Shown: positions 22,399-62,605 of the stretch, in pieces
Layout: each line of letters begins with the position of its first letter
Numbering within the stretch: position 1 is the first letter of the stretch
From: Lytechinus pictus
Lineage: Eukaryota
Reading direction: 5' to 3'
Assembly (NCBI RefSeq): GCF_037042905.1
Contig: NC_087251.1
Location: 17,176,001 to 17,240,000 of the forward strand
Length of the DNA: 64,000 nucleotides
Made by a program: the position numbers and the translations under genes
The notes under the pieces: model-generated
Told to the model about the DNA's origin: nothing
Seen by the model: only the letters and a program-made list of their open reading frames with translations
The model's database searches: none

Positions 22399-22761
22399 GG
22401 TGCTGCACCATCCCGAGTTTGCTCAATCTCGAGATTTTAGCCCGATCGGCCCTCTTCGCGATTATAATCTCGAGATTCAAGAAACCCCGTCTCCACCATC
22501 GCAAGAGGAGCAATTCATGCTCGAACGAGGCATTATGGTCCGACGCCGTGAATAAATACGAATTGGCGCGATAATTCGTAAAATAGCGCGCTATTTTGCA
22601 AATAATCCCAAGTTGACTTGGGATTGCAACCTCGAGATTAATCCTACGAACTAGCGCGATAATTGCGTCTCCATTGCAAATAATCTTGAGTTCAGATCAG
22701 GATAATTTGTCGAATCAAAAATAGCGCGCTAATTTGAAAACTCGGGATGGTGCAGACGGCC
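22399..22761. mobile_element. CpG-rich palindromic MITE in the putative 3'UTR
   Basis: TGCACCATCCCGAGTTT / AAACTCGGGATGGTGCA inverted termini. Confidence 0.8.
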
Positions 22762-26397: not shown

Positions 26398-26595
26398 TTA
26401 TGATTCCAATAATGCATGCCATCGACACACCTGGTGACCCTTTGATTCTCTCATCTCATTCCAATGGCCGATCTCTTCTTCGCTGCTGTTACTGAGACCC
26501 ATTGAGAACCAACCAATGGTCTCCTTACGCTTCACTCCTTTCTTGTTGAATGCCGTGAAGAGTAGGGTCATCTCAGGAAGCTGAAACTGGGCAAC
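26398..26595 (-). CDS. SYT14/16: Synaptotagmin-14/16-like, last coding exon (end of C2B and stop)
   Basis: Read by hand (not in the ORF track): VAQFQLPEMTLLFTAFNKKGVKRKETIGWFSMGLSNSSEEEIGHWNEMRESKGHQVCRWHALLES*. This closely resembles the vertebrate SYT14/16 C-terminus (..KRKEMIGW..GQQVCRWHALLES). AG acceptor at 26597-26596, phase 0, 198 nt including TAA. Confidence 0.96.
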   Translation of the reverse strand, partial: VAQFQLPEMTLLFTAFNKKGVKRKETIGWFSMGLSNSSEEEIGHWNEMRESKGHQVCRWHALLES

Positions 26596-27263: not shown

Positions 27264-27379
27264 CTGGAAAAAGAATGTCTCCTTAAATGTTGGACTAGAC
27301 TGGCTTCTCCTGACAGAAGTCTTGCTCTTGGAGATCTCAAAGCCACTGGATGACATTAGAGCAACCTTCACAAAGGAAT
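27264..27379 (-). CDS. SYT14/16: SYT14/16-like constant exon (C2B: DSFVKVALMSSSGFEISKSKTSVRRSQSSPTFKETFFFQ)
   Basis: CAG acceptor and GTAAAC donor; 116 nt, phase 1 to 0; joins in frame to give APDSFVK...FFFQ|VAQFQ. Confidence 0.95.
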
Positions 27380-28623: not shown

Positions 28624-28822
28624 CTGGTGCTCTACCAGCAGCTTTCTGCTTGAAGTGGCTTCCCTTGATAACCTCTACATCCAGCCGCCCAGTGGTGGCA
28701 TTGTAAGCTAGACCTATCAAGATCTCGGGTACACTACCCTGACTCATTGACTGCAGAGAAGATGAACTGTTGGTGTCGGACAGATCTGAGGTACTGGAGT
28801 ATGGAGAGGAGCCATCCTTGCT
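28624..28822 (-). CDS. SYT14/16: SYT14/16-like constant exon (inter-C2 linker and start of C2B)
   Basis: [10 protein letters not shown]...[42 protein letters not shown], with the SYT14/16-typical [17 protein letters not shown] acceptor, GTAATA donor; 199 nt, phase 0 to 1. Confidence 0.96.
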
Positions 28823-30277: not shown

Positions 30278-30688
30278 CACATCACTGCGAGGGTCGATTC
30301 TGACTTTGATGATTTGCTTGGTACCAATGTTTAGCGATGAGAACTTGATGATGCTCTCTCCAATTAGCTTCTCCTTCCTCATCCTCTCACAGCCATACAG
30401 TCTGCACCTCAGAGCAGTACTCACAACCTCATGAGGGAAGATCCGAGAGAACCTGAACAACTCTTTAAAGAGAGGCTCCTTAGTCTCTCTGATGTGGGTC
30501 TTAGCCCTTTGGCGTTTGCTTGGAAGCAGCAGAAGACGTAGCCTGAAGCTGGAAGCTCCACCTTCATCCTTAGTTGGTAGGTTATGGCACTTGATGATGG
30601 TGACATTCATACGCCTTGCTTCACCGTTGTACTGGAAAGCAATTTCAAGTTCACCAATGGAGGGACCCGCATCAGCTGGCTGGACATT
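30278..30688 (-). CDS. SYT14/16: SYT14/16-like constant exon (C2A domain)
   Basis: NVQPADAGPSIGELEIAFQYNGEARRMNVTIIKCHNLPTKDEGGASSFRLRLLLLPSKRQRAKT...RCRLYGCERMRKEKLIGE...DPRSDV. TAG acceptor, GTGAGT donor; 411 nt, phase 0 to 0. Confidence 0.96.
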
Positions 30689-31027: not shown

Positions 31028-31158
31028 CTCTACAACTATATCATCGTCATCTGATCCAACCAGAGGCAGATCATCCACCATCTCTGATTGTACAGGATCA
31101 TCATGGCCTTCTTGACCTATCGATATGTCACCTTGTTCTGCATCCTCCGCTCTCACAC
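31028..31158 (-). CDS. SYT14/16: SYT14/16-like first constant exon (acidic linker), phase-1 acceptor
   Basis: (G)VRAEDAEQGDISIGQEGHDDPVQSEMVDDLPLVGSDDDDIVVE. Pyrimidine tract plus CCAG acceptor, GTACGG donor; 131 nt, phase 1 to 0, in frame with the C2A exon. Confidence 0.85.
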
Positions 31159-36742: not shown

Positions 36743-37010
36743 CTACTTCACTAACCAATGACTCATTTGAGACAAGCTCATTGGCATTCTCACCGACTGC
36801 AGACTCTAAATCAACCTTACTATTAGCGATTGATACAACGTCCGATTCATTGGCGCTATGGGCAACACTGGGCTCTGAGTAGTGGCCCTCGTCTTCATCA
36901 ATGTTTTCATTATGCTCTTTGACTTCAGAAGGTTCCCTTGCAGGTCTGGGAACTAATCCTATCAGGGACGAAAACCCTGGGCAAAACTTCAGGCACGGTA
37001 AACACGTCAT
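36743..37010 (-). CDS. SYT14/16: Candidate alternative first coding exon V1 (MTCLPCLKFCPGF...SNESLVSEV)
   Basis: ATG with an in-frame TGA 15 nt upstream; acidic, protein-like 89 codons; ends GTA G|GTAGGT, a phase-1 donor (268 nt = 89x3+1). Confidence 0.7.
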
Positions 37011-40198: not shown

Positions 40199-42360
40199 GG
40201 GATCAGGACAACTACCCACCGGACAATTACCCCCTGGACAACTACCCCCGGACAATTACCCCCTGAGGACAATTACCCCCGAGGACAATTACCCCCGAGG
40301 ACAATTACCCGAGGACAATTACCCCCGGACAACTACCCCCCCCGGACAATTACCCCCCCCCGGACAACTACCCCCCGGACAATTACCCCCCTGGACAATT
40401 ACCCCCAGGACAAGTACCCCCGAGGACAATTACCTCCTGACAATTAACCCCGAGGACAATTACCACCAGGAACAATTAAACCCAAAATAAATATTAAAAT
40501 CAGATCAGTTGGAATCAGAGATATTCAGCATTTGTGATTATTATGACTAATTGTGTTCAATTGTTCTATGAAAACTTAGTATGAGGGCCAGGGGAGCGTT
40601 TCATCAACATTTTTGTCCGACATGTTGTCAGATCTGACATCTTTCCTTGATTTTGATTGGCTGATAAGCAATGTTACTATGGTAACTGTCGGATAAAATA
40701 GGACTTGTCGGATAAAACGTCTGACAAGTCCTTTCATGAAACGCTCCCCAGTTTACACATTTTCTGATGTATATATGCATAGCCAAACGGGAGGTTTCGG
40801 GTTGCAACCCCCCCCCAAATTTTTCATGATGCAGATGGCGCCGCTAAACAAAACAAAAAAAGGAAAAAAGAAAAAAGTGAGAGAACAGGAGAGAGAACAG
40901 GAGAAAGAGCAATATAAAGAGAAAGAAAAAGTTATTAACGTAAGATAAAGTAGAAAATATTTCGAGAACCTGTGCCACTGACCAAAACTTACAATGCGTA
41001 CCGCTTAATATTAACATTGATGCTGGAGAGAAGGGGGATTTTTTGGGGGTAATTGTCCAGGGGGTAATTGTCCTTGGGGGTAATTGTCCGGGGGGGGGGG
41101 GGGGTAATTGTCCTCGGGGGTTATTGTCCAGGGGTAATTGTCCAGGGGATAACTGTCCTCGGGGGTTATTGTGCGGGGGGTAATTGTCCAGGGGCTTATT
41201 GTCCTCGGGAGTAATTGTCCGGGGGGTAATTGTCCGGGGGGTAATTGTCCAGGGGGTAATTGTCCGGGGGGTAATTGTCCTTGGGGGGTAATTGTCCTTG
41301 GGGGTAATTGTCCGGGGGGGGGGGGGTAATTGTCCTCGGGGGTTATTGTCCAGGGGATAACTGCCCTCGGGAGTTATTGTGCGGGGGGTAATTGTCCAGG
41401 GGGTTATTGTCCTCGGGAGTAATTGTCCGGGGGGAAATTGTCCGGGAGGAAATTGTCCAGGGGGTAATTGTCCGGGGAGTAGTTGTCCGGGGGGTAATTG
41501 TCTAGGGGGTAGTTGTCCGGGGGGTAACTTTCCTCGGGGGTTATTGTCCGGGAGGTTATTGTCCGGGGGTTAGTTGTCCGGGGGGTAGTTGTCCGGGGGG
41601 TAATTGTCCGGGGGGGGGGGGGGGGTAATTGTCCTGGGGGTAATTGTCCGGGGGGAAATTGTCCGGGAGGAAATTGTCCAGGGGGTAATTGTCCGGGGAG
41701 TAGTTGTCCGGGGGGTAATTGTCTAGGGGGTAGTTGTCCGGGGGGTAACTTTCCTCGGGGGTTATTGTCCGGGAGGTTATTGTCCGGGGGTTAGTTGTCC
41801 GGGGGGTAGTTGTCCGGGGGGTAATTGTCCGGGGGGGGGGGGGGGGGGGGGGTAATTGTCCTGGGGGTAATTGTCCGGGGGGTAATTGTCCAGGGGGTAG
41901 TTGTCCGGGGGTAATTGTCCGGGGGGTAATTGTCCAGGGGGTAATTGTCCGGGGGCTAATTGTCCGGGGGGTTATTGTCCAGGGGGTAATTGTCCAGGGG
42001 GTAATTGTCCGGGGGGTAATTGTCCGGGGGGTAATTGTCCGGGGGGTAGTTGTCCGGGGGAGTAATTGTCCGGGGGGTAATTGTCCAGGGGGTAATTGTC
42101 CTCGGGAGTAATTGTCCGGGGGGGTAATTGTCCTGGGGGGGGGGTAATTGTCCGGGGGTAGTTGTCCGGGGGGTAGTTGTCCGGGGGGTAATTGTCCGGG
42201 GGGTAATTGTCCGGGCGGTAATTGTCCTTGGGGTGTAATTGTCCTTGGGGGGTAATTGTCCAGGGGGTAGTTGTCCGGGGGGGTAATTGTCCTCGGGGGG
42301 TAATTGTCCGGGGGTAGTTGTCCGGGAGGTTATAGTCCGGGGGTAATTGTCCTAGAACCC
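40199..42360. mobile_element. Foldback (TU/Puppy-like) element with inverted arms of ~15-bp tandem repeats
   Basis: (GGACAATTACCCCCC)n at ~40206-40480 and its reverse complement at ~41045-42352. TTTGTGAC is duplicated at 40191-40198 and 42361-42368. Confidence 0.88.
40591..40750. mobile_element. Short palindromic MITE nested in the foldback element
   Basis: GGGGAGCGTTTCAT ... ATGAAACGCTCCCC. Confidence 0.85.
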
Positions 42361-43993
42361 TTTGTGACCATAGGTCATAGGGACTACTTATCCGTCATGT
42401 ACTAAAAAATCTTGAAAGCATTATACTACACACACGGAATTTGCAATGTCATGAATCTCGTCGTCAATATTCGTGATTTGGTCTATATATTTGCGATGTC
42501 CCTTCAAGCCACCATAGTTTATAAGTAAATTTTTGTAATAGTTAGGAAAAATTTACCCTTCATTAACTCAGTTTCAAATGACTAAAATTACTCATATTTA
42601 CAATTTCTTATAATCTTATCAGCTCTTTTACAAGAATTACTGTGAATCTGTATTATTTTTTCTTTTTTATTTACAAACCTCTAGTAAACCCATGCATTTC
42701 AGCCATTGGATGCCATATGTGTAATTTCAGAAAGAAATAAACCATGGATATAAATTTCAAACATTCATCATCACAATTTCCCATTTTATAACAAAATTTC
42801 TGAGAAGTAAACAATGGAAAATGAACATTCTGAAGTAAGCTTTACAACAGAAATTTTAAAAATTCTTTTTTTGGGCAATTTATTTTTATTTTTGATTTCA
42901 AGCCAAGTCTTATTCAAACAACATGTAATCAATTGTTCACTATTAAGCACAATACCCGGAGTCTCAAACATTTTTGTCCATTGTCTATACTTTTGATGAA
43001 ATATGCTATTTTGTTTTGCTTGATTTGATTGAAATGATAAAATCTTCAAATAGCAGACAAATGGCTGTATCACACATTACTGTTATCATCACAAGCTGTT
43101 ATTTTTGCATACACATTTGTTTTTGCACAGCAGTTAAGATCAGGAAAATGGTACACATTCCTTGCAGAAATGTGGGGGGGGGGTCTTTTTATTATTTGTC
43201 AACCATTCACTTTGACTATTTTTGCCATCATAAATGTTCTTTATTTTTCTGTGTGTCTCATTAATCCAGAGTTTTTAATACCATATTAAAATACTCCTCA
43301 TTAGGTGGTTTCAAACCGCCTTGATCACAAGAATCCCTGTTGAATTATGGGAAGTTTTTCAGGCTAAAAAATAGCTGTGAAATATTCCCCATTCACACCA
43401 CCCCGTAACAGTTACGAGCATGCACACTATGCACACTATGGTCTGATAAGTAAGCAAGGCACAAGATTCAAAATCACTAGCTCAGCAGCCACCCACGGCA
43501 TCCGTGCCCAACTACACGCTGGGCTTTAAGTTCCCAGAATTTGCTTTCACACTGCCAAAACGGATTTGAAAGTGAGCTGCTGGCCATGCAAAAAATCATA
43601 AATAGATGGTTATTTTTATGTTTCTATACAGTTTTGGAAAAAAGTGCCCTCGTCTCTGCAGACCCTGCAAAATACCTGTGACCTTAGAAAAATCCCCATG
43701 AAAGTTCTCATAATTTTGACAAGTACAAAAGTAATATTATGTCAACTGTTTATTGTGCCTTTAATACTTGATAATACAAATCAAATGCAATATACAATAA
43801 TATAATAATTATTAGTCATTGATAAATTATGTAAATTAAGTTATACTTATGATAAAACACAATAAAATAAGCAATTATTTCATTAGATAGATGGAGGAAT
43901 ACAGAGGATGAAGGAGACTAAAAGAAAAGGAATGGGAGAGAAAGAGAGAAGGATACCCTTTCATGTATTCCCTCTCAAATATATAGTCTCTCA

Positions 43994-44161
43994 GGGCCGT
44001 TTCATAAAGCTGTTTGTAAGTTAAGAGCAACTTTAAGAACGACTGGTGAACCTTTCTTACGCACTTAACCATCACCAGTGAATATACCATTTACCACAAG
44101 AAAGGATCACCAGTCATTCTTAAAGTCACTCTTAACTTACGAACAGCTTTATGAAACACCC
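43994..44161. mobile_element. Short palindromic MITE
   Basis: GTTTCATAAAGCTGTTTGTAAGTTAAGAG ... CTCTTAACTTACGAACAGCTTTATGAAAC. Confidence 0.85.
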
Positions 44162-44199
44162 ACCACTGAATGAAAATCAGAGTGGGATTCTGCAATAAA

Positions 44200-44460
44200 A
44201 AGAGGTGACATGACAAGAGTACAAATATCTCTATGGTTATATGATACAATATCTGAACTTTTCTGTCTGAGAAATACTAGGAAAACATGTCCATGTGGTA
44301 ATTCCTCAGAGCTTGAGAAAAGTTTTTCATGTCTTGATGTGCCTAAAATTTTCTTTGCCAACAGATTGATAGATGTGTGGAACAGTCTCCCAGAAGAAGT
44401 CGTTACTGCTCGATCAGTGAATGCATTCAAGAATAGACTTCATAAAGCATGATTTTCAAG
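44200..44460 (+). mobile_element. CR1-type LINE ORF2 C-terminal remnant
   Basis: FFANRLIDVWNSLPEEVVTARSVNAFKNRL matches the CR1 C-terminal pattern FFSxRVVxxWNxLPxxVVxAxSxxxFKxRLD. Confidence 0.8.
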
Positions 44461-45910
44461 TGTATTGCTTTTGCTGTCCATGATACCACTGTCGTCCCTC
44501 CCTGCCAACGCAAGTAGTGCGTCTGTGTATTTTTATCTGAAGGAGAGCAGCAATCCCCTACGGAAATGTAAGCGTGCTGCATGCTAGTAACTAGTTAGCA
44601 ACTAGCTGGTGGCCTGCTTAATATAGCTGGTGGCTTGCTTTATATAGCTGGTGGCCCGCTTAATATAGCTGGTAGTCCGCCAAATGAGTGATTTTAAGCT
44701 AGCAAACAGTACATGCTCACTAAAAGATCGCTTGATTTTTTTTCTCTGCATGCCTATTAACAAGCTTATTAAGCTCGTTACTAGCTAGCCGCAAGCTAGC
44801 GACTAGCATGCGGCTAGCTTGAAATTTGTGTGAGGGATCTCTAATTTGATCGATGAACAGGCATAGTCTTACTACATCCTTTGAGTAAAGTAAAGTAAGT
44901 AAAATAAATGATGTTTGTGAATTTAGAAACAGTCTGCACTGATGTCTGCCAATAGTGCCTAGAATCATGGACCTATATTTAGAGACCTGTTTGTGTAGAA
45001 CTATGGCTTATTTAGAATATTGGCTAAGTAAAAAAAGTACTATTTGAAAAGGATAATATGCGCAAAGTGCTGACACTATTTTATGTGCTGGAGATAATCC
45101 ATGGCTTCACAGTATGTGACCTCGAATTCTTGGTGTAACATGAAATGGTAGAAAATGAACCTTTTGTATAACCAAATGAATTTTTGGTATCCTTGTTAAA
45201 CTTTGAAACTATTTGAATTCACTGATGTGCGCAATAGATGAAAGAGGGCATAATAAACAATGAGGTTTCATTTTTACTTTCAGTTTAAATTGTAATAAAA
45301 GGGCAATCCAGGCTGACTGAAAAATATATATCTAAACAAAATACAGTAAAATTCACTGAGGAAAACGTCAGAGATATTCTAAGGGATAGGGCCAGAAATC
45401 ACAGATGAATGCAAAATGTCTGGCGAACCATGAAATAAAGCCATCCAATATAATAATTATCTATTCCCCAAAAGTAAAGTTATTAAGTAAATTGTGTTAT
45501 ATATCATCATCAGTTAATATAGCCCCACTTAATAAAACAGTCTTGATCAGAGTAATGAGTGTAACATATAGCAATTCAGTAATTTTTCTAGTGATTTTTA
45601 GTTTTATAAAGAAGCTTATTAGATATACATCAGATTTTGGTGCTTTGTGCAATCCAGGGGAGGGGGGGTCACTGCCTCTGAAGAGTGGACAACATCTGCA
45701 ACAACAACAACAAAAAAACACAGAAAAAGGGGTGTTTATTGCGAGTAGGTGCGGAATGTGAATAGAGGGTAAAAAAGGCAAAAAAATGAAGAAAAAAAAG
45801 CCCCCTAAATCATGATGGTCTAAACCTTGAAGACCAAAATACAGATCTAATGCAACTTCAAAACACCCTATACAGATAATGATTATTTGAACTCAATATC
45901 AAGAATTTAC

Positions 45911-46085
45911 CAGTTGACCTTGATCTTGACAAATCGGTGCAGTTTAATAGCTGTTCATTACTTGACACGATTAAACATGATTCAATGTTTCCAGCAGAAC
46001 TCAGGCTTTTCTTTTCAACTAGACATTGGTCCTCATCACCTTCAAAGTCACCACAGCAACATAGCAAACCAGATCTGGCTACCAT
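45911..46085 (-). CDS. SYT14/16: Candidate alternative first coding exon V2 (MVARSGLLCCCGDFEGDEDQCLV...SRST)
   Basis: ATCATGG start with an in-frame TGA 9 nt upstream; CCC cluster; ends ACT G|GTAAAT, a phase-1 donor (175 nt = 58x3+1). Confidence 0.62.
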
Positions 46086-47653
46086 GATGGTTCAGCCAAG
46101 AATCCTCAAGAATCATAAAAGTTGAAGGAAACTAGTATCATGAAGCAAATAGATTCATTCAACAAGTTGACCACTTGATTTTCAAAAAGACTCAACTCCC
46201 ATTGCTTGATAAAGTTTCAAATCACATCAATCCAAAGAAATCCAAGAAAGTAAATATCCAGTGTGCTTTTGGTGATATGCAGCACCCACATATAAGCTTT
46301 CTGTACATAACCAAACTAGCTTTAGAGAACTTCAATTCTCCATGATGACTCTTTTCAAGGGATTCTTCTGATCAGCAGAAATTTAGATCTTGACTCACTT
46401 GAAACTCTCCTCAAATTGTACTCCAATTTCAATATCCAATAGCTTTGTGTAACTGCTATAAATTCACAGAGAATGACCCACACTAAAATCTGTACATTAC
46501 CAAGAAAATCAGGTGGCCCTCTTATTCTATTGCAGAATCTCTGTCATTGATGTGCAGGTAACACAAGACTATTATTCAATCAACAATGAAGTACCAGTGT
46601 ATTGTAATGATGCCAGCAACTTTTTTAGGCCCCCATTCAGTTACATAATAGTATAGAACATGAATTAAACCTACCAACACTTGCTTCGTTCAGTCGTGGA
46701 TTCCTAGTTGGAATAAAATTTCATTAAGCAGGGTTAAAATTCCATAGATTTTTATCTCATCACGACCCATTGTTACGGGAGAAACTCCGACTAGTTAATC
46801 ATGACCTTCTTAGGGGCCATCATGAGGGGTCAGAGTAATTTCTAGAAGTGGTCACGGGAGAAACTCCGACTAGTTAATCATGACCTTCTTAGGGGCCATC
46901 ATGAGGGGCCAGAGTAATTTCTAGAAGTGGTAGCGCCATGTATGTAACTCTTCCGATGTTCCGCATGATATCTGTAATTTAGTATAGAGAACTAGACCGA
47001 GGAAGTTTTAAACAAGGTCGTAAGGAAGGTCGTAAGGTAGGTCATAGATAGATACTCCCGAGTTCAGCTGGTACGCACGCCCATGGGCAATTTACTCCGA
47101 TCGGCTATTCATGATTACGAGATACTCCTGTAAACAAGTGGACTTCACCTCTGGCGGTCTCGTCTGCATCATAGCAGCAGTGCTACTGAATTTGAAAATA
47201 ACTAAAAGTGAACTATTGACGAAAAAAACATTATTCATGTGGTAATAAAATACCAGGTTGATTGACCCTAACTCTTTGCAAGCTGAATTAATTTTTGGGG
47301 GATAATGATGACAAACGTTTCCATGTTATTTTCTTTGATTCAAGATTTCCATATTGCACCATTGATACTTATTATCATTGTACAGAAGTTGTGCATGAAC
47401 TATTGCCTTTTATTAGCTTATCTAATTTGAATGTAGGGGAGAAATTTAAATAGTACGATACATGTTGAATTTAATTGTAAGAATGTGCAAGATTGCAACA
47501 TATCAGCGTGCAAAGGGCTAAAAGTCCTATATGAGCTAAGACTTGATTACTTTTGTTTCAAAGTTTCATGAACTAGATCCATAAACTTTTCTTAAAAGTT
47601 TTGATGGCATTTCCATAAATACCCCCAAATGGACAAAGTTCATTTGCTCTAAA

Positions 47654-48403
47654 CAGGGGTGGCAAATCATAGTTGAAAGTGGGGGGCACAGGGGAAAAGG
47701 GGCACCTTTTCTTTTGAAAAGGGCACTATCTCAAAAAAAAGAAAAATGATCTAGTAGCGTAATGGGCCAAAATTTTGAGGGGGCTAGATATGTCTTATCA
47801 CGTTAATTTATAAGAAGTTTCGAGCGAGCCAAAATTTTGACATTTTTATAACGAAAATCAAATTTTGTGATAGATTTTGACAATATTCAGAAAATAATAT
47901 TATATTTCACCCTTCTCTCTTTCCTTTTCTTTTTCTCGGTCATGAAAAATTTATATTATATCTACCCCACTCACATGACTCATGAAGCTTGAGACACATA
48001 GGATTATCCTTTCAAGTTTTGTAGTACTTTAGCATATGAAAATGAGAATATTGTTTTCTGTTTCAAAGGGGCACTCGTTAACACATAAAATGGGTCCTTC
48101 TCAGGTGAAAGGGGCACACAACGCATTCGTGTGGGGCACTTTTCTTGGGTAAAAAGGGGAACTGATACGAGATAGGGAACTTACAAGAACATGTTCGCGA
48201 GGGGGTATTTTTGCTTTAAAAATTGGCATTTACACGAGAAAGGGCACTTGGTAACACCTAAAATGGGTCATCCTCAAGTGAAAGGGGCACAGTACACATT
48301 CGTGAAGGGGGCATTTTTTTGCGTAAAAAGGGCACTTTTTCAGTGCTTCAAAAAGTGGGGGGGGGGCACTGTGCACCCCGGCTACCAAGGAACATCGCCC
48401 CAG
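47654..48403. mobile_element. hAT-like MITE with an 8-bp TSD
   Basis: GCTCTAAA|CAGGGGTG ... CGCCCCAG|GCCCTAAA; many AAGGGGCAC subterminal motifs. Confidence 0.7.
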
Positions 48404-48641
48404 GCCCTAAATGATCTTTGGCCTTAAAAATGTGACCTGAAACTCAAGCAAGGTGATCAGTGATACTTGATTACTCTTATGTCTAAGTTTCATGAACTAC
48501 CTTGGTTAAGATTTTGATTTTGGTTCCCAAACATGGTGAAAAGTTCATTGACCCTAAATGACCTTTCAACTTAGTATGTTTAGTATCATGAAATAGGTTC
48601 ATATACTTTCTAAGTTATGATGAAAGTTCTTTTAAACTTAA

Positions 48642-51265
48642 CTCTTACTCTGCCAGGCCCAATACCCCTCTACTGCCAGGGATATTCGAGGGAACCCTAA
48701 ATTGACCGAAATGTGAGCAGCGACTGATTTTAAAACGGTCATAATTCTTTACCCGTACGTTGTATAATAAAACCTTCTACACATGAAATGATGCATGGTT
48801 CATGGGCTTTATGGTCGTGTTATTATCTTTCATATTTGCGTTTGGAAAAATGGAGAAAAGATGTAATATTTTACATTGTTTTTTTTTCAATAAGTAAAAC
48901 CTGGAAAATTATGATTTCATGAACATTTCAAAGAGTAAATAACCTGAGGAATTGTAGAGATACCAAGAAATTAAGAAGATAAAATGAAAGTTCAATGTTT
49001 ACCCTTTCAAATGACGTATCTATTAATGAAATTGAACAAAAAGAAATAACGAAAAATAATGCTCTTTTGAATAAAATACTATTTTGCTATTCAAGTTATT
49101 TCCTCTGAAGTACGATAAAGCGACCTGTTCCAAAAAAGGGCATTGTCGCCGATCAAGTGACCAATCACAGCACAGCTGCGATCCCCACGCAAACATACAT
49201 AATAATATATTAGAGCCATGTATCTTCAAAGTGCGGCCAACCGTACCCTTTCATTTGTGTAGTCTTCAAAATAAGACTCTGTAATTTTTTTTTATTCGTA
49301 GTGTAACAAACAAAGTTATTGCCAGTCAGAAGGAGACAAAATATAAAAGAACTAAAGATGATATATTGAAATATATATAGAGGGGTCGGACAGTTTCAAT
49401 ACTTACAAGTTTGGGGTATAAAATCCCACAAAATAATATGGGCGTTCTTGGCAAAGTGCACAGAAGTAAGAAAAAAAGGGTTTATTTTTCGTGAATCAAA
49501 GAAGAGGGAATGCAAATCAGTTACAAACAAAAAAATCAATACAAATTTTCAAAAAGAAAATAGGCCTATTTGTTCTGTATTACTGGTCTGACCAAAGTAG
49601 CCACCTGTTAACATTCTACGTAACTACATTCTTTTGGTCATGCCACCAAGTCATGAACAATAGATGCCCAGACTCTCTTTCATGAGGAATCTCTAATCCG
49701 CGCTCCCTTCTGACCTATTATCTAGGAGAGTAATTTGGCACAGGATGTTCATAGAAATCGGGGCTCACGCGCGTCTTTTGATTTGACATTTGAATACTTT
49801 CAAAGGTTCCGGTATTGATTTCTTATGGGTGACCCAGGTAAAGAGAAAATAATTTTTTATATGCAGAAAAATCCTGCATCCGCCCAGGGCCTCCCCAGCT
49901 CGTAGCACTATCCGTGGTAAAAGAAATAATTTGTTCAGATAACATAGTGTACAATAATATGCGTGGTATAAAGAAATGTAATATTCAACCCGTTATCATC
50001 GTTATCATTTTCATTTCTACTCTCTAAAGTCGTTTTAAAATCCCCTTGATAGTGACGTCAATGATGCAGCAACTAACAGGTCGGTCTGATCGGTTTTGTT
50101 AATGTATCCCTTTCTTTCTTTTCCTCAAAACATCTTGAGACGAATAAAGCGGTATTATCGGCCGTTTTAATTCTCACATGTATTTGTTTTGCTTCTTCCT
50201 ATTTTATTCGAGGAGAATATTGAACGATTCATATTTTTGTGAGAAGTTTGAATATGATATTGATAAGCATAACAATGTCAATCATTCTTTTTTTATGGTT
50301 TGGGCTATAAAAACACCAACGAATATGAACCGTTATTTACCTGATCTTAAGTTTATGAAGAGAGAGTTTGTCTGCAGAAGGAATGCAATTGATATGATTA
50401 CAACAATTATTTTTGAATAATAATCATAATGATGATGATGATTCTGATGGCAATAACATTAATAATAAGAAGGTGAAGGAGAATAATAATGATAATAATA
50501 GCAATAACAATAATGATAATAATGATTACGATAATAGTAATACTAATAATGAAAATAATAATAACAATAATAAATGAATAAATAAATAATGTGTGATGAT
50601 TGCAGTGCGATGAGAGTTGGAAATGACAGCTTTCTTTACTCATATATTTAAACCAAAACAATTTCGTGAAAATGCTAAAAAAACAAAGTATAAGACCTTT
50701 CCCCTACCCCCCAAAAATCTCCCCCAAACCGTGCACATTTGCAGGCAGAAAAAAGCCTTGACACAAGAATACCACCATACCGGCCTGCAAAAGAACCGAT
50801 CGATAGCTCATGAATATTCATAAAACAATAGCGAATGGGCGAGTAGCGTTGGGTGAGAGACATCGTACCGCTCTGTCATTGGTCAATTCTGAGCTGAATG
50901 CCTTCGCACACTCGCCTTTGCTCTGCCCATAGAAGTACGTGTATTGCTACACACAACCTTTATATCACACGTGTCTATAGGGGAAATCTTGATTCAGATC
51001 GCGGCAATATCCGAAATCAACTCTTCAAAATAATGATGCAAAAATGCCATTTTACTCAAAAAATGTCTATGTGAACCACTATTTTTTATGTAACAAAATC
51101 AATTGTGAATTCCTTGCCAATATAACAACATAAAAAACACAGAATATAGTGTTGATTTTCTGGCTGTAAAATTGGTTAAACAAAAAAAAGTTACTTGGGC
51201 AACTATAGCTGCCAGCGGCACTAGAGGGCTATGGGCAACTATAGCTGCCAATGGCTCTTAAAGAG
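48642..51265. mobile_element. 2.6-kb non-autonomous piggyBac-like element (TTAA TSD)
   Basis: AAAC TTAA|CTCTT...AAGAG|TTAA CCTTGG. Removing it restores the AAACTTAACCTxxGTTxAGATT seen intact in the 7974-8932 copy. No transposase ORF. Confidence 0.75.
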
Positions 51266-53256
51266 TTAACCTTGGTTGAGATTTCAATGACGCCACTACC
51301 CTCGCCATCGGAAAAGCGGCACCTATGTGTAAGCAAGACAAAAACCCGGAGCATCTTGGTCAGAGTAGGGTCAGAGGAACTTACACGACCACTGTCCAGA
51401 CAGGCACTACTCTGACCTTACTCCAAAAGGGCTTCCTCCGACCGTTCCTTCGATCTAACTACGATCAAAACATCCTCCGTCTGAACGAGGCTATGAAGAG
51501 AACGTGCCTGTTTACTAAGTGATTCAAGTTTGCAGGTTTCTTTCCCTAATTCCTATGAACCAAGTGACAAGGTATTTCTTTTCACTTGTGAGTAAAAAAG
51601 AAACTACAATACTTAGAATTCAGTTGCATACATTAGTTGTTGCTAGGTATGGCAAAGTCTTAAATTAAATTTCTAGGAAAGTTTCTAGTGAAACGTGCCC
51701 CCCCCCCCCAATCGACTGGCAAAAAAAAATGGGGAACAGGAGAAAAAGAGGGAGTTTATGAAGGTTTGCACATACCCCCCAAAAAAAAAAAAATTGGTTG
51801 GCCAAAAAAAATGGGGAACAGGAGAAAAAGAGGGAGAAAGAAAGAGAAACGTGGAGAAGAAGAAATTTTTGTATATTATATTATGTTATATTACATTATA
51901 TATATTACACAAGATGTATTTTTTCATAACTCTATGAATCATAATTTGCTTAAAATTTTTGTTTGTGTTCATCATTCCTGGTACTCACATTGTCTCTTTA
52001 ATGAGATATATAATCCTGTTGTACTGAAACATGCCGTTTTCAAGTCAATAAACACCAAATATATTTTCTCACACTTCGACTTATCATTGTTTAATAATTT
52101 ATGTAGTGACATATGCTTCTTTTTCATGACTTCTTAAAGTGATTACCCCCTTTTAAGGTCTGAATATAAAACGTTGCTTAGTGAATTGGTGAGATATGTC
52201 TGCTCTTCATTAATTTCTAAACAGTACTTGAAATTGTTGCTTTTCCTGGTCTGAAAATAAAAAATTTTCAGCTTGCACTTCGCATCATTTGGTTGTGTTT
52301 CACGCTCGCATTATTTTAGTGAGACAGGTATAAATCATGAGTACAAAAATTTGCTTATAATGTCCCTTTTTTACGTCTGAATATAAAAAAAATTCAGCTC
52401 ACGCTCCGCTTTCTCATTATTTGATTAGTAAGATACATATCCAATAATGGAACAGTCCTTAAAATGCCTCTACTATGTCAGTATCTGATAATATGCCATT
52501 CCGTAGTTCCATTCTGCACATGATCAGAAGATTCTGCGCATGATCAGAAGAGGGTCATTGGCCTAAAAGTGACACGGTGGTTCAATATTTAATGAGATAA
52601 GCACCAACTTTGCACCTTTGATGTCTTGATTATTCATATATTCTTTTGAATTGTAATTTTCATTAGATCCACAAAAAACAATACGTCCACTAGCGACTGG
52701 TATATCACAGTTCGCCAAGTACATTGCATAACAACAGGCTAATATGCATTCAAAGTGCAGCTAGTATACCTTCATAGAGTGTTCATTGGTGTGCTACTTT
52801 AGTCATCTGGACTATTCGATTTCTTCATCCTGTTAAGTAAGGCATGCTTACATAATATCTTGCTTTGAAATCTGCCTATCATAATGAAAGAGATGAAAGG
52901 TCATTTGACCAAAATTGCCCATGAAGTATGAAATGGTCTATTGGATGCGCTTTGCGCGCCCATCACTAAGTGAGTCAAAATGTTTGCCGGTGCCCCCCAA
53001 TGCCGTGACCCAAGGTACGCCACTGGTATCTCCATTAAATGTGACAGCTCTATACCATTGCTGAGGATCACCCCCCCCCCACACACACACACACATGAAA
53101 CCCTTGAAAATTCTTTCAAATTGTCCACTTGAAAAATTATTACAATATGGCCTGCAGTATGAGGTGCACCTCATAAAGATCAAAATACAAGAATACTTAC
53201 TAAATTATTTTCTAAAATATTGATCACTACAAGAAGAGCAGACAATGACTACTCAC

Positions 53257-53653
53257 CTCTCCCTATTCTATCAGAAAACAGTTCATATTTTCTGTTTTTG
53301 CTATATTTTGAACGTTTCCCTCGTGGCAAGTAGACATCGGAATTGCTCGAAAAATCACTATCTGGTGATGAATAGGTGCTTGGGGGAAGCAAACGTATAA
53401 CAGGTATCTGACTTGTAGAATAACTCCTGACTTGCATTTGGGTCCCTCTAAAGTTACCTGCTCTTGCTCTAGGATCATAAAGTCTATTAGGAACTGACTT
53501 CCTATGTATTTTTTTGTACATTTGAGGTTTATTTTCAATCAGCAGGGCCGATGTTTCGGAGTCTGTAACATCTGTTGTAGAGTAAGCGATGTCAATAACC
53601 TTCCCTTCAGTTGTCTTTCGACAGCAAAAGCAACATGACATCTTGCCTCCCAT
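53257..53653 (-). CDS. SYT14/16: Candidate alternative first coding exon V3 (MGGKMSCCFCCRK...DRIGR)
   Basis: AACATGG start; MGxxxS followed by CCFCC; 132 codons; ends AGA G|GTGAGT, a consensus phase-1 donor (397 nt = 132x3+1). Confidence 0.75.
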
Positions 53654-55516
53654 GTTATAAGACTGGCTGTATAGGATCAAGCTTTTAAAAAAATATATAC
53701 TTGCGGATTGAGAAAATCAAGCTGAAGATGTCAAATCAGATGCACAGTCATTGTCCTTCATCACAAAAGCTTTATCCACAGTGATATAGCAGATACATTT
53801 CAAGATAGAGCCCCCTCATTTTGCAATCTACATACCTATGCTTCAACTAGTTTAAGAAGGCAAAACAGTCTTGAAAACCACATCGCAAGGTGTTTTTTTC
53901 CACACTGGTTTGGAAGACTAAAATTAGTTCAAGAACCACTTGGAGCGTTCCCATAGTTACACATTAATCTGGTTTCCTGTCAACTGGTTTCCACTAACTG
54001 AAATGAGAAGAGGGTTAGTAGGACACTGAACAAAACCACTGGCATCAAATCTAAATCCTCCAACATCACTTTTCCATGTACAGTTCTACTACGTGCTATA
54101 ACCAATCCAAAGCATCTGATAAATAGAGATCTCTTTCTGCAAACATGTCTGATTCATGCCAGACAAGACAATAATAAACACTCCGCACATTCTTTGTTGG
54201 ATACGAAGAAGGCTTGAATGAATGGCCAAATTTCCCTGGTCAACCAAACCTATCACAATTATGGCTTCCACAGGTTGTCATAGTCCAAGGAAGTTGAATC
54301 AAGCTAGGCTGTCTGGTAACTTTAAAAGATTGTACCTGGTTGTCTGTCAGTTTGACTTCATTCATACTTGGTCTCCTGTGGTCTATACCAAAGTGTTTCA
54401 GAGAGTGTAGACCATGGTTGTACCATAGAGCTATAGCTCTATGGTTGTAGAAAGCAAACAGATTAAATCCTTTAAACCAACTTAACGGACAATGGACATC
54501 TACCTGTGCATGGAGGTTCCAAACCTCAAGGATCTCTTCATGGATTACACAAAAACAGGGAAATTACAACTATCCTTGTAGTTACGTCATTCCCTTTTTC
54601 AGGGTCATTAGTACATTTGACTATCAATGGATTTTCATACATATGGGTGACATACCATATCTTGTAGCAATGGCAGGAAAACTGAACAGGTCAGTAAAAG
54701 TGACAAGTGCCCTGCATAACCCATCCCCCCCCAAAAAAAAAAAAGTTTGAATAGGCTATATACTCATAGACACCATCCTCATCTACTTCCATTTAACTAG
54801 TTTAGTGGAAACAAATTATAAAGTGGAAACAAGTTCAGGGATTCTTATTGTCTTTTCTTTTAATACTTCTATAATTTGCTGTGTTTATTTTTTTACTGCC
54901 ATGATGCTTTATGATTATACTGAAGGTTTGTATTGTATGAATATGAATAAACACCTCTGTTACACACATGTATGTATAGAAAGACGAGAATAAATGCCAA
55001 TGTTGCTAATGTCTCATGTACACCTAATTCCTGCATACACTGCATATATCATATGCAGTGTATATCATTTCAAGAGGCCTACATATCACATTGCAGTGAA
55101 TGTGATTATATATTTATATATTTATGTATCAGAATCAGATGTCATGTAGTTGCAATGTACTATTCTCCAAAATCTAACTTCCATGTCTTTCTTAGGTTAA
55201 GAAATGAAGCCAATCTTATATACAGCCAGTTTAGATTTGACTTCAATTGGGCAAAATATATCTGGTTGCTTTTATTCATACAAGGATATATATCAACTGA
55301 CATTTTATCAAAGTAGAATCTTATTTCCCATCTGACATTTATATTACTATTAAGAAATAAACATGCATCAATGCATCTAAATTTCATAAAGTTTGCAAGT
55401 TTAATGCATCAAAGTTTCATCAAGTTTGTAAGTCTTTTTATTTAAAGAAAATATTAAATGCAAGTTTGTTACAGAGAAAGTAATGAATGAAGTTTAACAT
55501 GCAGTCACTGACATAC

Positions 55517-56060
55517 CATAATAACCTCTAGGTGAATAATGTTGAGTAAGCTTTATCTTCCTCTGGTGGTTTTTGTCTCTCGTTGCAACATTAAGAATTT
55601 CTGAGCCACTCCTAGGTAGGAGCTTATACCGATGGTCATCACTAATCCGTCTGGTCACGGGAAGACTCTTAGAACTGGTGATGTCGCTGAGGTCAGAGTA
55701 TGACGTCCCTTCGCTCAAGCAATGTTCGCTGTCAGTGTTATACAGGGGAGATGGTGGAAGGTGCAGGACTTGTCCTTCCTGGATAGTCTCAAGGTCTTCT
55801 GCACCTTCTGGGGTATCTATCCCTGTGTCATTATAGTCATCAACATGTTCACTGGAATACTGATGTTTCTGAGACAGCATGCGTTCTCTAGCATCACCAT
55901 CACCACCATCATGATCATCATAAGGTCTACTCGATTGATCCCTGTCCGCTTCATTCAACATGCTCTCTTTCTCAGAAGGGTCCGCGACGGTTTCGTCCTT
56001 GTTTGGACGCAAGGAGCTGATGAAGCTTCCTATGAACTGGGTGAATTCATCAAAAGCCAT
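55517..56060 (-). CDS. SYT14/16: Candidate alternative first (or cassette) coding exon V4 (MAFDEFTQFIGSFISSLRP...SPRGYY)
   Basis: GCCATGG Kozak context; 181 codons of acidic, Ser-rich sequence; ends TAT G|GTATGT, a phase-1 donor (544 nt = 181x3+1). A TTCTTCAG acceptor at 56082-56081 also fits phase 1. Confidence 0.75.
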
Positions 56061-59000
56061 GGCAACTTGGCTTTTTATAACTGAAGAATACACATAGAAT
56101 TGTTGATCTAGATATAATCTACCACAGATTATATGAAATTCAATTGATGAGGTTGTCAAGAGTAAACCATTCTTCTATCAACTACAATATGGTGTATCAG
56201 CAATGTGCATTTTCACAAGCAATCAATGTCCAATGCACCAGCTCCTAAGGTGACTTCCAATCTCCAACTTCAGACAGCTCGAAGCACTACTCCATCCAGA
56301 ATCAGAAGACCACAGAGAAAACTACCGGACAGCCATCTTAACTATAACGGAATCATCCTCTGCTTCACAATCAATGCTGTATTGTTATGCAGTAACAATT
56401 GGCAAGTAGGGAGGAAAAGCTCTGAAGAAATCAATAAACTCGGTTGAGAAGTGTTTAGGAAATAACAGGTGATGGGCTTACACCACAGTTTAAGCTCCAT
56501 ATTTATGACCTCACGACCTATGATTGCAGTCTCCTGTTGATTTCTCTGTATTCCACATTGACAACATTCAGGTACTTACACCAATGTCAGAGATCTCCCA
56601 TTCTCATTATCATTCTTAACATGCATAGATGCTATGACATTGCAATACATCACACGTCATCCCCACCACACAGTACACGGCACTACTACGCTCAACCCCA
56701 AGGCCATCCTATGGGCCGTACTTCCCAGAACATAGCAAGAAAACAATAGCCCACAAATCAATATCTCACTTCCAATTTCAACACAGCACTCGAGGCAACA
56801 AAACTGAATGAGTTTCTTCAATTTCAAATGAATTGTTCTCATTCGAAGGTGATGGTTCATGGACAAGATACGACACTTCATTATTCACAAGAACCGTCAA
56901 TCAAAATTCATGATCATATATATCTTTCTTGTGAGTGATAACATATAAAGCATACTTTCTATGGTTGGCTTTCTATCACATGTTGATCATATTTTTGCAC
57001 CAGAGATAAAAAGAATGGAGAAAATGTGCCTTGCAAGAAATAACAGTTTTTGGTAAGTTCTGCACTTAAGTACCAAGTGGGCCATCTGCAATATGGTGAG
57101 CATTAAAAATTTTGGTTTTTCAAAACAAATAATGAGGGGAACAGGTCAGTCAAAGATTAGGCAAAATGGTAGAGTCTGGATGAAAGTAGTAATACACACT
57201 GAAATCTGCTGACAAGACATCATGCAAAATGGGTTAACTTCGAATCCGAGTACATACATGAGCCAATTAGGCGAGTTTATACATCTACCATTCTGTTCTC
57301 ATGCCAAGACTGTCTGCAATGCTAGCCAGTATCTGTCTCAAAGGGATACTCTACGCTGAAAAATAATATGATCTGAACAGAGAGAGAAAAATCAGACAAA
57401 CACAACACTAAAAATTTGATCAAAATCTGACAAAGAATAACAAAAGTTATGACATTTGAAAGATTTGCATTTTTTTTGTATAACAGTTCTATTCATGGCT
57501 TCATGAATATTCAATTAGCAAACTGCTGTCATATCACCACTTGTTTTGTATTATATGGAATTATGTTTATTTAATTTTGTCCTCCAAGGATGAATAAAAT
57601 TGGATTGACAACTGACTAACTGCATTAATACACATTCATTGCTGCAACTTATTTCATTATAAGGTAGACATACCATACACACATGTATGAAAATATGATT
57701 TCATGTTATAACATAAGAAAAAGGAAAGTGGGGATGTGACATCATCAGCCCACCTCGTGTATATTTATGACAATGTGCATAATTGTTTTCACAAAATAGG
57801 GCTTTACTTTAAAATTCAATAACTTTGTTATTTCATATCAGATTTCGATGAAATTTTCAATATTTTGCTTGGTGAATTTTACGCTACTTATTTAGATACG
57901 ACTATTTTCAACTTTGGAGTACCCATTTATCATCATTCGTTAAAGTACAGTCCACCATTGGGTGTATCATCGTACTTGTATTTAAGCTAGATCCATCAAG
58001 TTACACTACCTTCAAACAATTTAGAAGATGCAGTCAAGATACATTTATAAAATGATGACATTCTGATGTACTTTCTTTAAAGCACCCCTACTCCCTTCAC
58101 TTTTTGTCATTCAAAATAAGATCATATACAACCTAGTTTTTAGCACACATCTTATTTCAGCTTACATTGAAGCTCAACTTAAGATTTGGTTGATCCTCTA
58201 AAATATTTTTTAAAAGAAACTTACTTTCTTTTTTCTCAGCTGGTCAATAGCTTGACCACAGCAAAGTATTGTCCACTTCTCAGATTATCAAATATCAAGC
58301 CAATGAGATAATGCAAATATATCATTGTACCTTAGCCAGGGATAAAATCCTGCATGTATTATCAAAATTATCTTTGCCTAATATAAGTTTGCCTACATTG
58401 GAGTCATATCTAGGCATAAGTAGAGGGTGCGCCCTTGTGTATCAGGCTAAGAGACCATTTCATAATGCGTTCTTTTAAGAAACACAGAAATTCACTGGAA
58501 ATAAGGAAGGAGTTAATAATGAATCTAACACATATCTCACATGTGGTAGTCAATATGAGTTTTATATGAATATTCCAGCAATTGACCCTTAAATTGGAAA
58601 CCACCACTAAACCCAACAATATATCAGGGTTGTCCTCTGAGTATGAATCAACTGCCAGTGATTCAGGCTCATTTGAAAAGTAAACTAGTTTAGACTGGAA
58701 GTAAAACTATGTTCCAGGGGCCTTATCGACAGATATACACAGTACACCAATTCTTTCACTCCAGCTGCACTAGTTCTCACCATTTCTCAGTGCAAAATAT
58801 ACCTCAACACATGATAAAAACCGAGTCAATATGATACTCTTGTTTCTATCCTGGAAAATACTCCATAAGGCTAAAAGCACTGAAAAATGTCTGCATTCAA
58901 AAGGCAATATTCAACAACAAAAAAGATATAAACACTACTTACCTTGATACAATGTCTATTATGTTAGTGCAATAACACAAATTAAATATATTTCTGGTTA

Positions 59001-61004
59001 GAATTTTAGATGACTTACCAATAGGCTAACCATACACTTATACAAACTAATGTTAGAATTAAACTGAAAATATGTGCAGTTAAAACACATCAAATTGCAG
59101 ATAGTGTATGGCAAAATTATAGATTCCCTTGTCATGTTCCCCCCCCCCCTCTCTCTCTCTCCCTCTCTCTCTCTAGTCATAGGGCAAATTAGCTGAAAAA
59201 TATAGCACACTCAGGACTTAATAAGCATACACTCATTTAATTAATACACACCCCTGAGTCTGCAATACTATTACAAAATTAGGAATGTATGTTTGTATGA
59301 CCAAATTATATTCGAAATATCTCATGAATCACAAAGGAATCACCATAATAGGAAGGTGCAAATTAAATGAAAAAGTTAATTGGGGAGAAAGACTATTTAT
59401 TGTAAAATAACAGAATCAAGAGGATTACAAATTACAATCATCCCAACTCTCACTCACTCTATTTATTTCCAAAGTACAAGTAAACATAAAAACACACTGG
59501 TACCCAAATTACTCAATTGTTCAATACCATAGAGTTATAGTTTATCTACAGACTTCATGCAGATGTGGAGATATTCAAATTGGTTCTGTCTTTATTTACA
59601 AGTTAGTATGGGTGATTGAACTGGATCTTGGTTTCCGCCATAACTAATTTTAATTAAATTAATCCATATCTATAAATATCATTAATAAACTTCATCTGAA
59701 ATGATCATTCAAGCAGTCTGATTCTCTGCAAACCACTTTATTCTATCACTCATTTAAAAAAAAATTAAGATAATTGCAAGTGATTCAAATATATCAAACT
59801 GAGATTGGCACTGATCTTAAATGTGTTTTGAAGAGAATAAAAGTTGGGATCAAACTCAATATCAATCAAATGTAACTCTTACGAGGATGGGCCCCTGAAA
59901 AGCCAGACTATCTGTAAAATAATAATTTGGATTATTCAAATTCACACTTTCAACTTCATATTAGAGGGGAGGGCGACAGTGAAGGGATAATCACATCATT
60001 CAAGAGTTTGTTCCAGACCAGTTCACCTGTCATTTCGATATCTCCTTCCATCTCAAAGAAACTCCTCTCGTGTCTTGGGAAGGTGTCTCCTGTTTCATCC
60101 TCAACATCATGTACATACAAGAATTCTTCTCCTTCATGTCCATATTGATGCATTCAAATCAAGCACAGTACATCAATTCAATTTTATGAAATTCAATCCT
60201 ATAAGAGCCATCGATGGGTTTGACAGGCTTAATACTCTTGTAGTTCCCATTATAAAGTATGATAGATGTTCAACATTTTTCTTTTCAAAGTATACAAACA
60301 AGGTAATATTTACATTTTTTTATTTAAGTAAAACATGAATTTTCCCATGCTATTGGGAGAATAATCACAAAAAAAATTTACCCAACATTCAGAAATACAA
60401 AATTCTATACAACGGAAGATTTAATCGTGCATATACAGTTAGCTTTTGCTTTAAAAAACTTTTACAACTATTATCATAGTTTTACAACTATAATCATTCT
60501 TTATCATCTACTGGAGTTTCATTCAGAATTTTTAAGAAAATTCTAAAAATTATTTGTAATGTTTTACAATAGCTAACATTATGCCAAAAGGGGAGAATGA
60601 ACTGACTATACTCTTACTCTGAAAATGCCAATTGTATACAAACATGAAACAATGCACAGAGTTTAACTTTTGCTAATGACTTGATATCAATTATCAAAAA
60701 GAAATTGAAATATTATAATAAAATTTTAGACAAGAAAATACTTTTGGTTTCAGTATATCAAAGTGGTATGATGGTATGATGGTGAGAATATAGAGTTTGA
60801 CTGCGGTCAAATGAAAAATATCAACGATTAAAAAAATCCTAAAATTGAGTTTAGAAATGAAGAGGGGGAAATAAAATTTGGGGGAATAAAATCAAAGCAT
60901 CCATCACAAAGCTATGAGAGTTAATTGATACTGTAAATACTTGAAATAATTTCAAGATGATTAATTCTTTGACATGACGCTGCAAATTTGCTAGATACAT
61001 CTGA

Positions 61005-61530
61005 GGGTGTGTTCAATGTCAATTTTCAATTTAGACAGCAACATGAATCATGATTGAAAACTCAATTACAAAACACAGAACACAAAATCCATCAGTGGTG
61101 CACTGTACAGTGTCTTCAGTATAAAGCTGATCTTTTGTCGATCATCTTTAAATTTCCCACTTTGGTAAATGCAGCTTTAGTGCGTATTTGAAAGGTCAAT
61201 TCTAGCACCTGCTTGTGCAGGCTTCCACTGCGAGAGCATATTTAAAGACTTTTCAAAACTCAATCAAGTTTGCATTTATTCCGTTCAATGTCACATTCGC
61301 GATGCTGAAGGTTGTAAAATCTTATCTGATCTCATTTCCAAACATATCTTCTTCAGTGTATAAATTTTCCTCCCAATCGTGATCTGAAAGACGTTTACTT
61401 TTGCAACCAGGAATGGGGAACATTAAAACACACCATTTGTTCTCATTATATCCACGTTGTGTAACAGCGTTTAAATATTATGATTCATGTTGCTGTTTAA
61501 ATTTGAAAATTGGCAAATTTGAAAACACCC
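61005..61530. mobile_element. Degenerate MITE with ~50-bp inverted termini; the right end is partly duplicated at ~61603-61650
   Basis: GGGTGTGTTCAA...CAGCAACATGAATCAT versus ATGATTCATGTTGCTG...GAAAACACCC. Confidence 0.65.
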
Positions 61531-62304
61531 TTATGATAGTCCTGATTAATTGTCTCACTATGTAATCAAAATTTGAGTTATTCTTTGTAAAACTGATATC
61601 AATATTCATGGTTGCTGTTTAAATTGGAAATCAGCAAATTTGAAAACACTCTTCTAGTCCTGACTAATTGCCTCACTATGTAACCACTGATAAAAAAATT
61701 TTCACTGTCCATACAGGTCTAATAATTTGAATCAATTAAAAGGGGAATAATTATGCTGAGTAGAACACTGACATACATTAAAGAAGTAAAGTAAAGAATT
61801 AAATAACAATTACAAAACTAGATTTAAGTAAATGTAAATTTAAAAGCCTCTTTGGAGTGATTTTTAAAACTATATTTCTGCACATATTGATGAAACATGA
61901 AAAATTGGAAATTCATCAATATTACAAGGATTTTCTGCACCTAACCACCTTTGAAAAAGTAAAGATGTCATGACATAGCAGAGTTATACTTTGTCGGTCT
62001 GACTTTTTACATGTACATTGTGTAAAACAATTTAAGTCATATTATCATAACAATAATCATCTTCTTTCCAATGGCTAAATAATAAGATTGAAAATTTTAA
62101 TAAATCACCTAGTGAATTCAGCAATAATGAATCTGTTATGTATTACACATGTAATTACAATGCAGAAAATTATTCAACTGTTTAATATTTCTAATCATTT
62201 CCAGTTCCAAAGATTAAGTCTATCCCATAATTCAGTATTAACATTTTAGTCAAGAACTTATTTTTGATTTCTCTAACATTTGGTTCTATGTGTAATTTTA
62301 TGCC

Positions 62305-62605
<301 letters not shown>

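Follow-up and report, generated by a model that had tools for sequence, protein, structure and literature searches.

An alternative first exon of a sea urchin SYT14/16 gene encodes a transmembrane-less leader with predicted acylation and dileucine sorting signals

Structure of the SYT14/16 gene

Searches with tblastn in the window, that is, the whole 64,000-nucleotide stretch of Lytechinus pictus DNA analysed here, placed five common exons (31158-26398) and the exons V1, V2, V3, V3b and V4, all of which have phase-1 donors (Table 1). The downstream exons encode a tandem C2 protein, recognised by Pfam, whose C2A exon is identical to the L. pictus synaptotagmin-14-like protein P0004. Among the matches listed (the best 120 of 525), all those with a name are of the SYT14/16 type and the rest are C2 proteins without a name, and the C2B region matches vertebrate SYT14/16 at 61-65%. 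A tree of 29 rows, built on the last 320 residues and with no named SYT17 among its rows, recovered a clade of the echinoderm rows (98/100) and a second one of vertebrate SYT14 plus SYT16 (95/96). By every family feature tested, the host gene of V3 is, as judged from its sequence, SYT14/16, and it belongs to the same family as the Syt16 group described by Craxton, for which TM-less variants (variants without a transmembrane helix) are known in S. purpuratus and Ciona (PMC2823689). An earlier reading made from the sequence only had drawn a comparison with SYT17. We rejected a SYT17 identity as improbable, since the gene groups with SYT14/16, its best matches are SYT14/16 proteins, no listed match is named SYT17, and TM isoforms (P0005, P0008 and P0162) exist where SYT17 would have no TM form.

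The L. variegatus orthologue P0001 was compared with SYT1 at what we take to be the five Ca2+-ligand positions of the latter, and each C2 domain retains one Asp and one Glu there. Since most of the ligands are lost in C2A and C2B, the host protein is unlikely to sense Ca2+. Fly SYT14 is likewise reviewed as an unlikely Ca2+ sensor (PMC8164606).

The window holds alternative N-termini without a TM helix (V2, V3, V3b and V4); TM exons were not found within it by tblastn, and the TM form is represented by P0005 and P0162. The L. pictus RefSeq annotation appears to split the gene into the 169-aa P0162/P0165, which contain the TM part plus V1 running into the intron, and P0004, a model made of V4 and C2AB. 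The V2-type leaders of urchin, brittle star and sea star (P0012, P0016, P0074) begin with MAF. So do many vertebrate SYT14 models whose first 200 residues contain no TM helix, and this start possibly marks an old class of amphipathic leader; the hydrophobic moment did not separate the V2-type leaders. Elsewhere the window contains arrays of a 15-bp G/C-rich satellite together with one long run of trinucleotides (40204-42352, 62306-62604) and, downstream of the gene, stop-to-stop ORFs at 14599-15204 (minus), 22352-22574 (plus) and 5600-6301 (plus), which could represent repeats or belong to other genes as exons.

Table 1. Features of the SYT14/16 gene in the window, listed in the direction of transcription.
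Feature	Position	Strand	Evidence or remark
V1, part of L. variegatus TM isoforms	60027..60135	minus	5' boundary approximate
V2, alternative first exon, acidic leader, possibly amphipathic start	55517..56060	minus	tblastn and contigs
Presumed 5' UTR contiguous with V3	53654..53981	minus	contig of run X1; lower bound; run X16 contig to 54448
V3, alternative first exon, coding part	53257..53653	minus	132-aa TM-less leader, phase-1 donor
Predicted N-myristoylation site (Met1, Gly2, Ser6)	53636..53653	minus	Gly2 and Ser6 invariant in 7/7 aligned leaders
Cys7/8/10/11 cluster and R12-K13, predicted S-palmitoylation	53615..53635	minus	sequence
Acidic dileucine ETSALL, residues 33-38	53540..53557	minus	EGTALL in S. 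purpuratus; ENTPLM, ETTPLL in sea stars
V3b, alternative first exon, 58 aa, Cys cluster	45911..46085	minus	orthologue of Craxton's S. purpuratus var2
V4, alternative first exon, 89 aa, N-terminal Cys	36743..37010	minus	in L. pictus P0004; Craxton's var3
First common exon, phase-1 acceptor	31028..31158	minus	tblastn
C2A exon	30278..30688	minus	Pfam C2 E 5e-12; 100% to P0004
Linker and start of C2B	28624..28822	minus	tblastn
C2B middle exon	27264..27379	minus	tblastn
C2B last coding exon and stop	26398..26595	minus	tblastn

Reading frame and start of V3

V3 is an ATG-initiated frame of 132 codons plus one nucleotide that closes at the donor GAG/GTGAGT (minus strand, 53653-53257), which agrees with the frame and leader motifs first read from the letters. 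The data fit a 5'-terminal exon and not an internal cassette, since at least 328 nt lie contiguous with Met1 on its 5' side, in contigs that give no start site. These 328 nt contain eight upstream ATGs, each with a frame that closes before Met1. Compared with the 6.5 expected there is no depletion, and the density of ATGs is comparable 5' of other exons (17 in 613 nt for V2, 9 in 416 nt for V3b).

The first codon is preceded by A at -3 and followed by G at +4. Met5 likewise has A at -3 and is conserved among urchin leaders, but its context is weaker than that of Met1, and it is missing from the sea star leaders, which retain Gly2 and Ser6. Translation is predicted to start at Met1. In the record P0003 the frame is open for 151 codons upstream, and its use would bury Gly2. 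We rejected such an N-terminal extension because the window has an in-frame stop at 53719-53717, 21 codons 5' of Met1, and because P0003 reads through the V3 donor.

Splicing and use of V3

An isoform with V3 is already predicted by RefSeq in two other urchins: the models L. variegatus X4 (P0001, XP_041469137.1; leader 92% identical) and S. purpuratus X1 and X2 (XP_030855366.1 and XP_011664424.1; leader 57% identical to X2, P0002) connect V3 with the first common exon. The L. pictus isoform would be about 483 aa long. Protein searches returned no L. pictus protein with the V3 leader, nor any with the V2 or V3b forms.

Four of the 22 listed sequencing runs were aligned to 42500-62200, and runs X1, X16, X20 and X21 are among those cited here; X1 was taken as RNA by guess, and X20 and X21 are raw RNA runs, of each of which about 6% was read. 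A 752-nt contig of run X1 covers V3 and aligns at 53254-53981, with 25 letters left over. Because the first three letters of the intron are also those of the common exon, a spliced V3 contig should stop exactly at 53254, and the contigs of V2 and V3b also end where predicted (at 55515 and 45909). The exon contigs account in full for the depth of run X1 in two intron bins nearby (5.03 vs 5.05; 6.53 vs 6.53), so run X1 behaves as spliced RNA there. These results strongly suggest that V3 is spliced to the common exon at 31158 across a 22 kb intron, and they speak for its expression, the lack of which would have told against the sequence-only reading. The TM-less synaptotagmin isoform proposed there agrees likewise with the contig break, the leader and the RefSeq models that join it to C2AB.

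V3b is spliced in run X16, and in runs X20 and X21 it is covered on the expected strand. In these two runs there is no clear depth at V3 or V2; in the V3 bin the depth is no more than 0.3-0.4 per strand, and a repeat at 53013 can account for it. The presence of V3b depth without V3 or V2 depth indicates that exon use differs between samples. Interspersed repeats at 43994-44165 and 47561-48623 draw many reads from other loci.

The eight upstream ATGs, the missing V3 depth in the two raw RNA runs and the absence of an L. pictus protein with this leader from the search results would all suit a chance ORF or an untranslated transcript. We consider this very improbable, as S. purpuratus retains the frame and the donor at 57% identity, the conservation being biased towards the motifs, RefSeq models exist in two species, and the contig breaks at the donor.

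Motifs of the V3 leader

The three elements initially recognised in the leader are all present: Gly2 and Ser6 of the MGxxxS consensus, the CCxCC cluster (Cys7/8/10/11) followed by the basic R12-K13, and ETSALL at residues 33-38, which fits [DE]xxxL[LI] and is the only [DE]xxxL[LIM] within the leader. No TM segment was detected by Kyte-Doolittle analysis (best 19-residue mean 0.41), and the leader is basic, with 24 K+R vs 12 D+E. It is probably disordered, and comparisons with Pfam (E up to 1), PDB (E up to 10) and the ESM Atlas gave no usable match. In the urchins a weak YxxPhi-type motif, YKKI (YSKV in S. purpuratus), lies 3' of the dileucine (53507-53518, minus strand).

N-myristoyltransferase (NMT) is reported to prefer a small residue 3 and S6K7, and to accept GKXXSX, a motif into which the sea star starts fall (bioRxiv 2021.06.22.449375). 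In V3 residue 3 is small, Ser6 is present and residue 7 is Cys in place of Lys, so that the Gly2 context is NMT-compatible at the motif level.

Four features, namely Gly2, Ser/Thr6, at least three Cys in residues 3-16 and a dileucine within residues 16-50, occurred together in 0 of 200,000 composition shuffles of the leader with Met1 fixed, a figure that is optimistic because the feature windows were picked after seeing the sequences. Singly, they occurred in 5.4% (Gly2), 20.5% (Ser/Thr6), 0.4% (Cys) and 1.9% (dileucine) of the shuffles. Conservation is a stronger test of the motifs than these shuffles.

Conservation in urchins and sea stars

Between L. pictus and S. purpuratus, 30 of the first 38 residues of the leader are identical, compared with 47/94 in the remainder (Fisher p 0.003), and the dileucine changes at its two x positions only. 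Leaders of similar length (134-137 aa, against 132-134 aa in urchins) occur in the sea stars Patiria miniata X3, Asterias amurensis X4 and A. rubens X4, and they share Gly2, Ser6, four cysteines and the dileucine pattern ExxPL[LM], in the form ENTPLM or ETTPLL at residues 29-37. BLASTP alignments of the sea star leaders to V3 cover the first 38-45 residues only, with E values of 4.5e-4 to 0.04 for the urchin-sea star pairs; the dileucines of the two groups do not form one column in MAFFT, and BLASTP aligned both Asterias ones. The urchin and sea star exons may be either orthologous or convergent, and either case implies selection on the motifs.

Gly2, nearby Cys and an acidic dileucine are kept in three urchins, the record P0003 and three sea stars, so that the conservation of Gly2, Ser6, the Cys cluster and the dileucine in orthologues, which had been proposed as a check, is borne out in both groups. 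All four features are found in 6/288 proteins, and these six are the urchin and sea star isoforms described here; this is a description and not a p-value, because the set (346 proteins minus 58 under 330 aa, two of the searches behind it being listed for the best 120 of 525 and 150 of 1770 matches) holds redundant isoforms and distant C2 proteins. A dileucine at residues 16-50 occurs in 4 of the remaining 282. The full motif set is absent from the listed isoforms of the brittle star Amphiura (six, X1 not among them), the crinoid Antedon (five, of which X5 has Gly2 and Cys only) and Ptychodera (five), and, among the retrieved proteins, from Diadema, amphioxus, protostomes, vertebrates and all non-echinoderms. 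The V3-type leader appears limited to echinoderms.

Cys-cluster, TM-less leaders that lack Gly2 are present in SYT14/16 models of mollusc, annelid, amphioxus and hemichordate (P0047, P0048, P0077, P0168, P0142, P0133, P0035). The trematode C2AB proteins P0282, P0310 and P0340 have a Gly2 and Ser6 start and no TM helix; they form long branches, and we are unsure of their kinship to SYT14/16.

The frequency of Gly2-less Cys-cluster leaders (V3b, V4, brittle star, molluscs, amphioxus and Ciona), together with the retention of Met5 in urchins and the absence of Lys7, leaves some room for a V3 leader that is palmitoylated only, possibly starting at Met5, with Gly2 and the dileucine being incidental. 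This seems improbable to us, given that the sea stars, which have no Met5, retain Gly2 and Ser6, that the context of Met1 is the stronger one and that Gly2 is found together with Ser/Thr6 in just 1-2% of the shuffles.

Predicted targeting of the V3 isoform

The conserved motifs support the prediction of acylation well, and we consider it highly probable that the leader is both myristoylated and palmitoylated. The adaptor binding, the destination and the function of the isoform are likewise predictions. In the proposed mechanism, alternative use of the first exon V3 would give SYT14/16 a TM-less leader, from which Met1 would be removed before NMT myristoylates Gly2. A DHHC enzyme would then palmitoylate the Cys cluster and so fix the protein to the cytosolic face of a membrane. 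Some 22 residues beyond the cluster, the acidic dileucine would bind AP-3 or AP-1, or AP-2 after a pass through the plasma membrane, and thereby concentrate the isoform on late endosomes, lysosomes or lysosome-related granules, where the Ca2+-independent C2AB might act in constitutive trafficking.

The precedent invoked in the sequence-only reading, LAMTOR1, matches the literature. LAMTOR1 is described as myristoylated at Gly2 and palmitoylated at Cys3/4, with a dileucine at residues 17-22, on late endosomes and lysosomes (PMC2882324), and its residues 1-39 as a portable lysosome signal that carries other proteins there (PMC7039192). Lam1 of S. pombe is reported to disperse without both lipid sites and to spread to the plasma membrane after an LL-to-AA change, and Ego1 to have a layout in common with it (PMC5752196). 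Like these proteins, V3 would be a TM-less peripheral protein with Gly2, nearby Cys and an acidic dileucine. Compared with LAMTOR1, the Cys lie at residues 7-11 instead of 3-4 and the dileucine at 33-38 instead of 17-22, with a longer gap between them, and the cargo is C2AB instead of the Ragulator scaffold. Homology to LAMTOR1 or Ego1 was rejected, as the leader matched no Pfam family (E up to 1) and no PDB entry (E up to 10); the predicted likeness of the leaders is one of motifs.

We see about an even chance that the dileucine sorts the protein to endolysosomes or related granules. A dually acylated isoform might instead be held by its lipids and basic residues at the plasma membrane, the Golgi or early/recycling endosomes, with the dileucine acting as an AP-2 endocytic or AP-1 sorting signal (e.g. 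for secretory granules) or being weak. Signals of the [DE]xxxL[LI] class are reported to bind AP-1, AP-2 and AP-3 alike (PMC5297682), and the V3 leader is basic. At the gene level, embryos of P. miniata express syt14 in neural clusters and widely across the ectoderm (PMC10396339), and syt-17, the sole acylated synaptotagmin studied, is placed on Golgi and early endosomes (PMC6684635). Against this, the same three-part leader leads to the lysosome or vacuole in LAMTOR1, Ego1 and Lam1, and two echinoderm classes carry the dileucine at comparable distances. We judge the non-lysosomal location, the leading alternative, rather unlikely. The reading that we put slightly above even is that of a Ca2+-independent C2AB protein which bears both myristate and palmitate and is sorted by AP complexes to endolysosomes.

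Relation to other synaptotagmins and significance

SYT17 (B/K) resembles the proposed V3 isoform in being TM-less, acylated on N-terminal cysteines and Ca2+-independent (PMC6684635), and myristoylation is not mentioned in the available main text of that study. The earlier comparison with SYT17 supports lipid anchoring and does not extend to an endolysosomal location. Moreover, SYT17 is a separate gene; the V3 form, which is TM-less, belongs to a set of isoforms from a gene whose products include a TM protein. SYT7 is a lysosomal synaptotagmin whose sorting is reported to need palmitoylation; it is anchored by a TM helix and travels with CD63, whereas V3 would bear its own signal, without most of the Ca2+ ligands.

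The alignment S30 of Craxton includes var1 (TM), var2 (V3b) and var3 (V4), and a term search of the whole file did not find V3; term searches covered 12 of the 50 supplements, and the others could list it (PMC2823689). Acylation is not mentioned in the available main text of Craxton 2010 (PMC2823689). In the literature searched, which included few subscription journals, no paper described an SYT14/16 isoform that is myristoylated or sorted by a dileucine, and both the targeting proposed for V3 and its recurrence in sea stars seem unreported there. The targeting mechanism itself is already known from other proteins.

Tentatively, and with rather less confidence than an even chance would give, we propose that echinoderm SYT14/16 is an anchor-swapping gene, with TM, amphipathic, palmitoyl-only or myristoyl, palmitoyl and dileucine leaders each directing one Ca2+-independent C2AB to a different organelle, and that V3 has been a naturally myristoylated, self-addressed lysosomal synaptotagmin since the split of urchins and sea stars. 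SYT14/16 is among the least understood synaptotagmin groups; mutations in human SYT14 are linked to recessive ataxia, with little else known (PMC8164606). If the lysosomal reading is true, V3 would represent a second, CD63-independent route that places a synaptotagmin on lysosomes, and an address of the Ragulator type reused on an unrelated protein. The gene offers a natural series of leaders on a constant C2AB, with which one may ask, in embryos that can be injected with mRNA, on which membranes the protein works.
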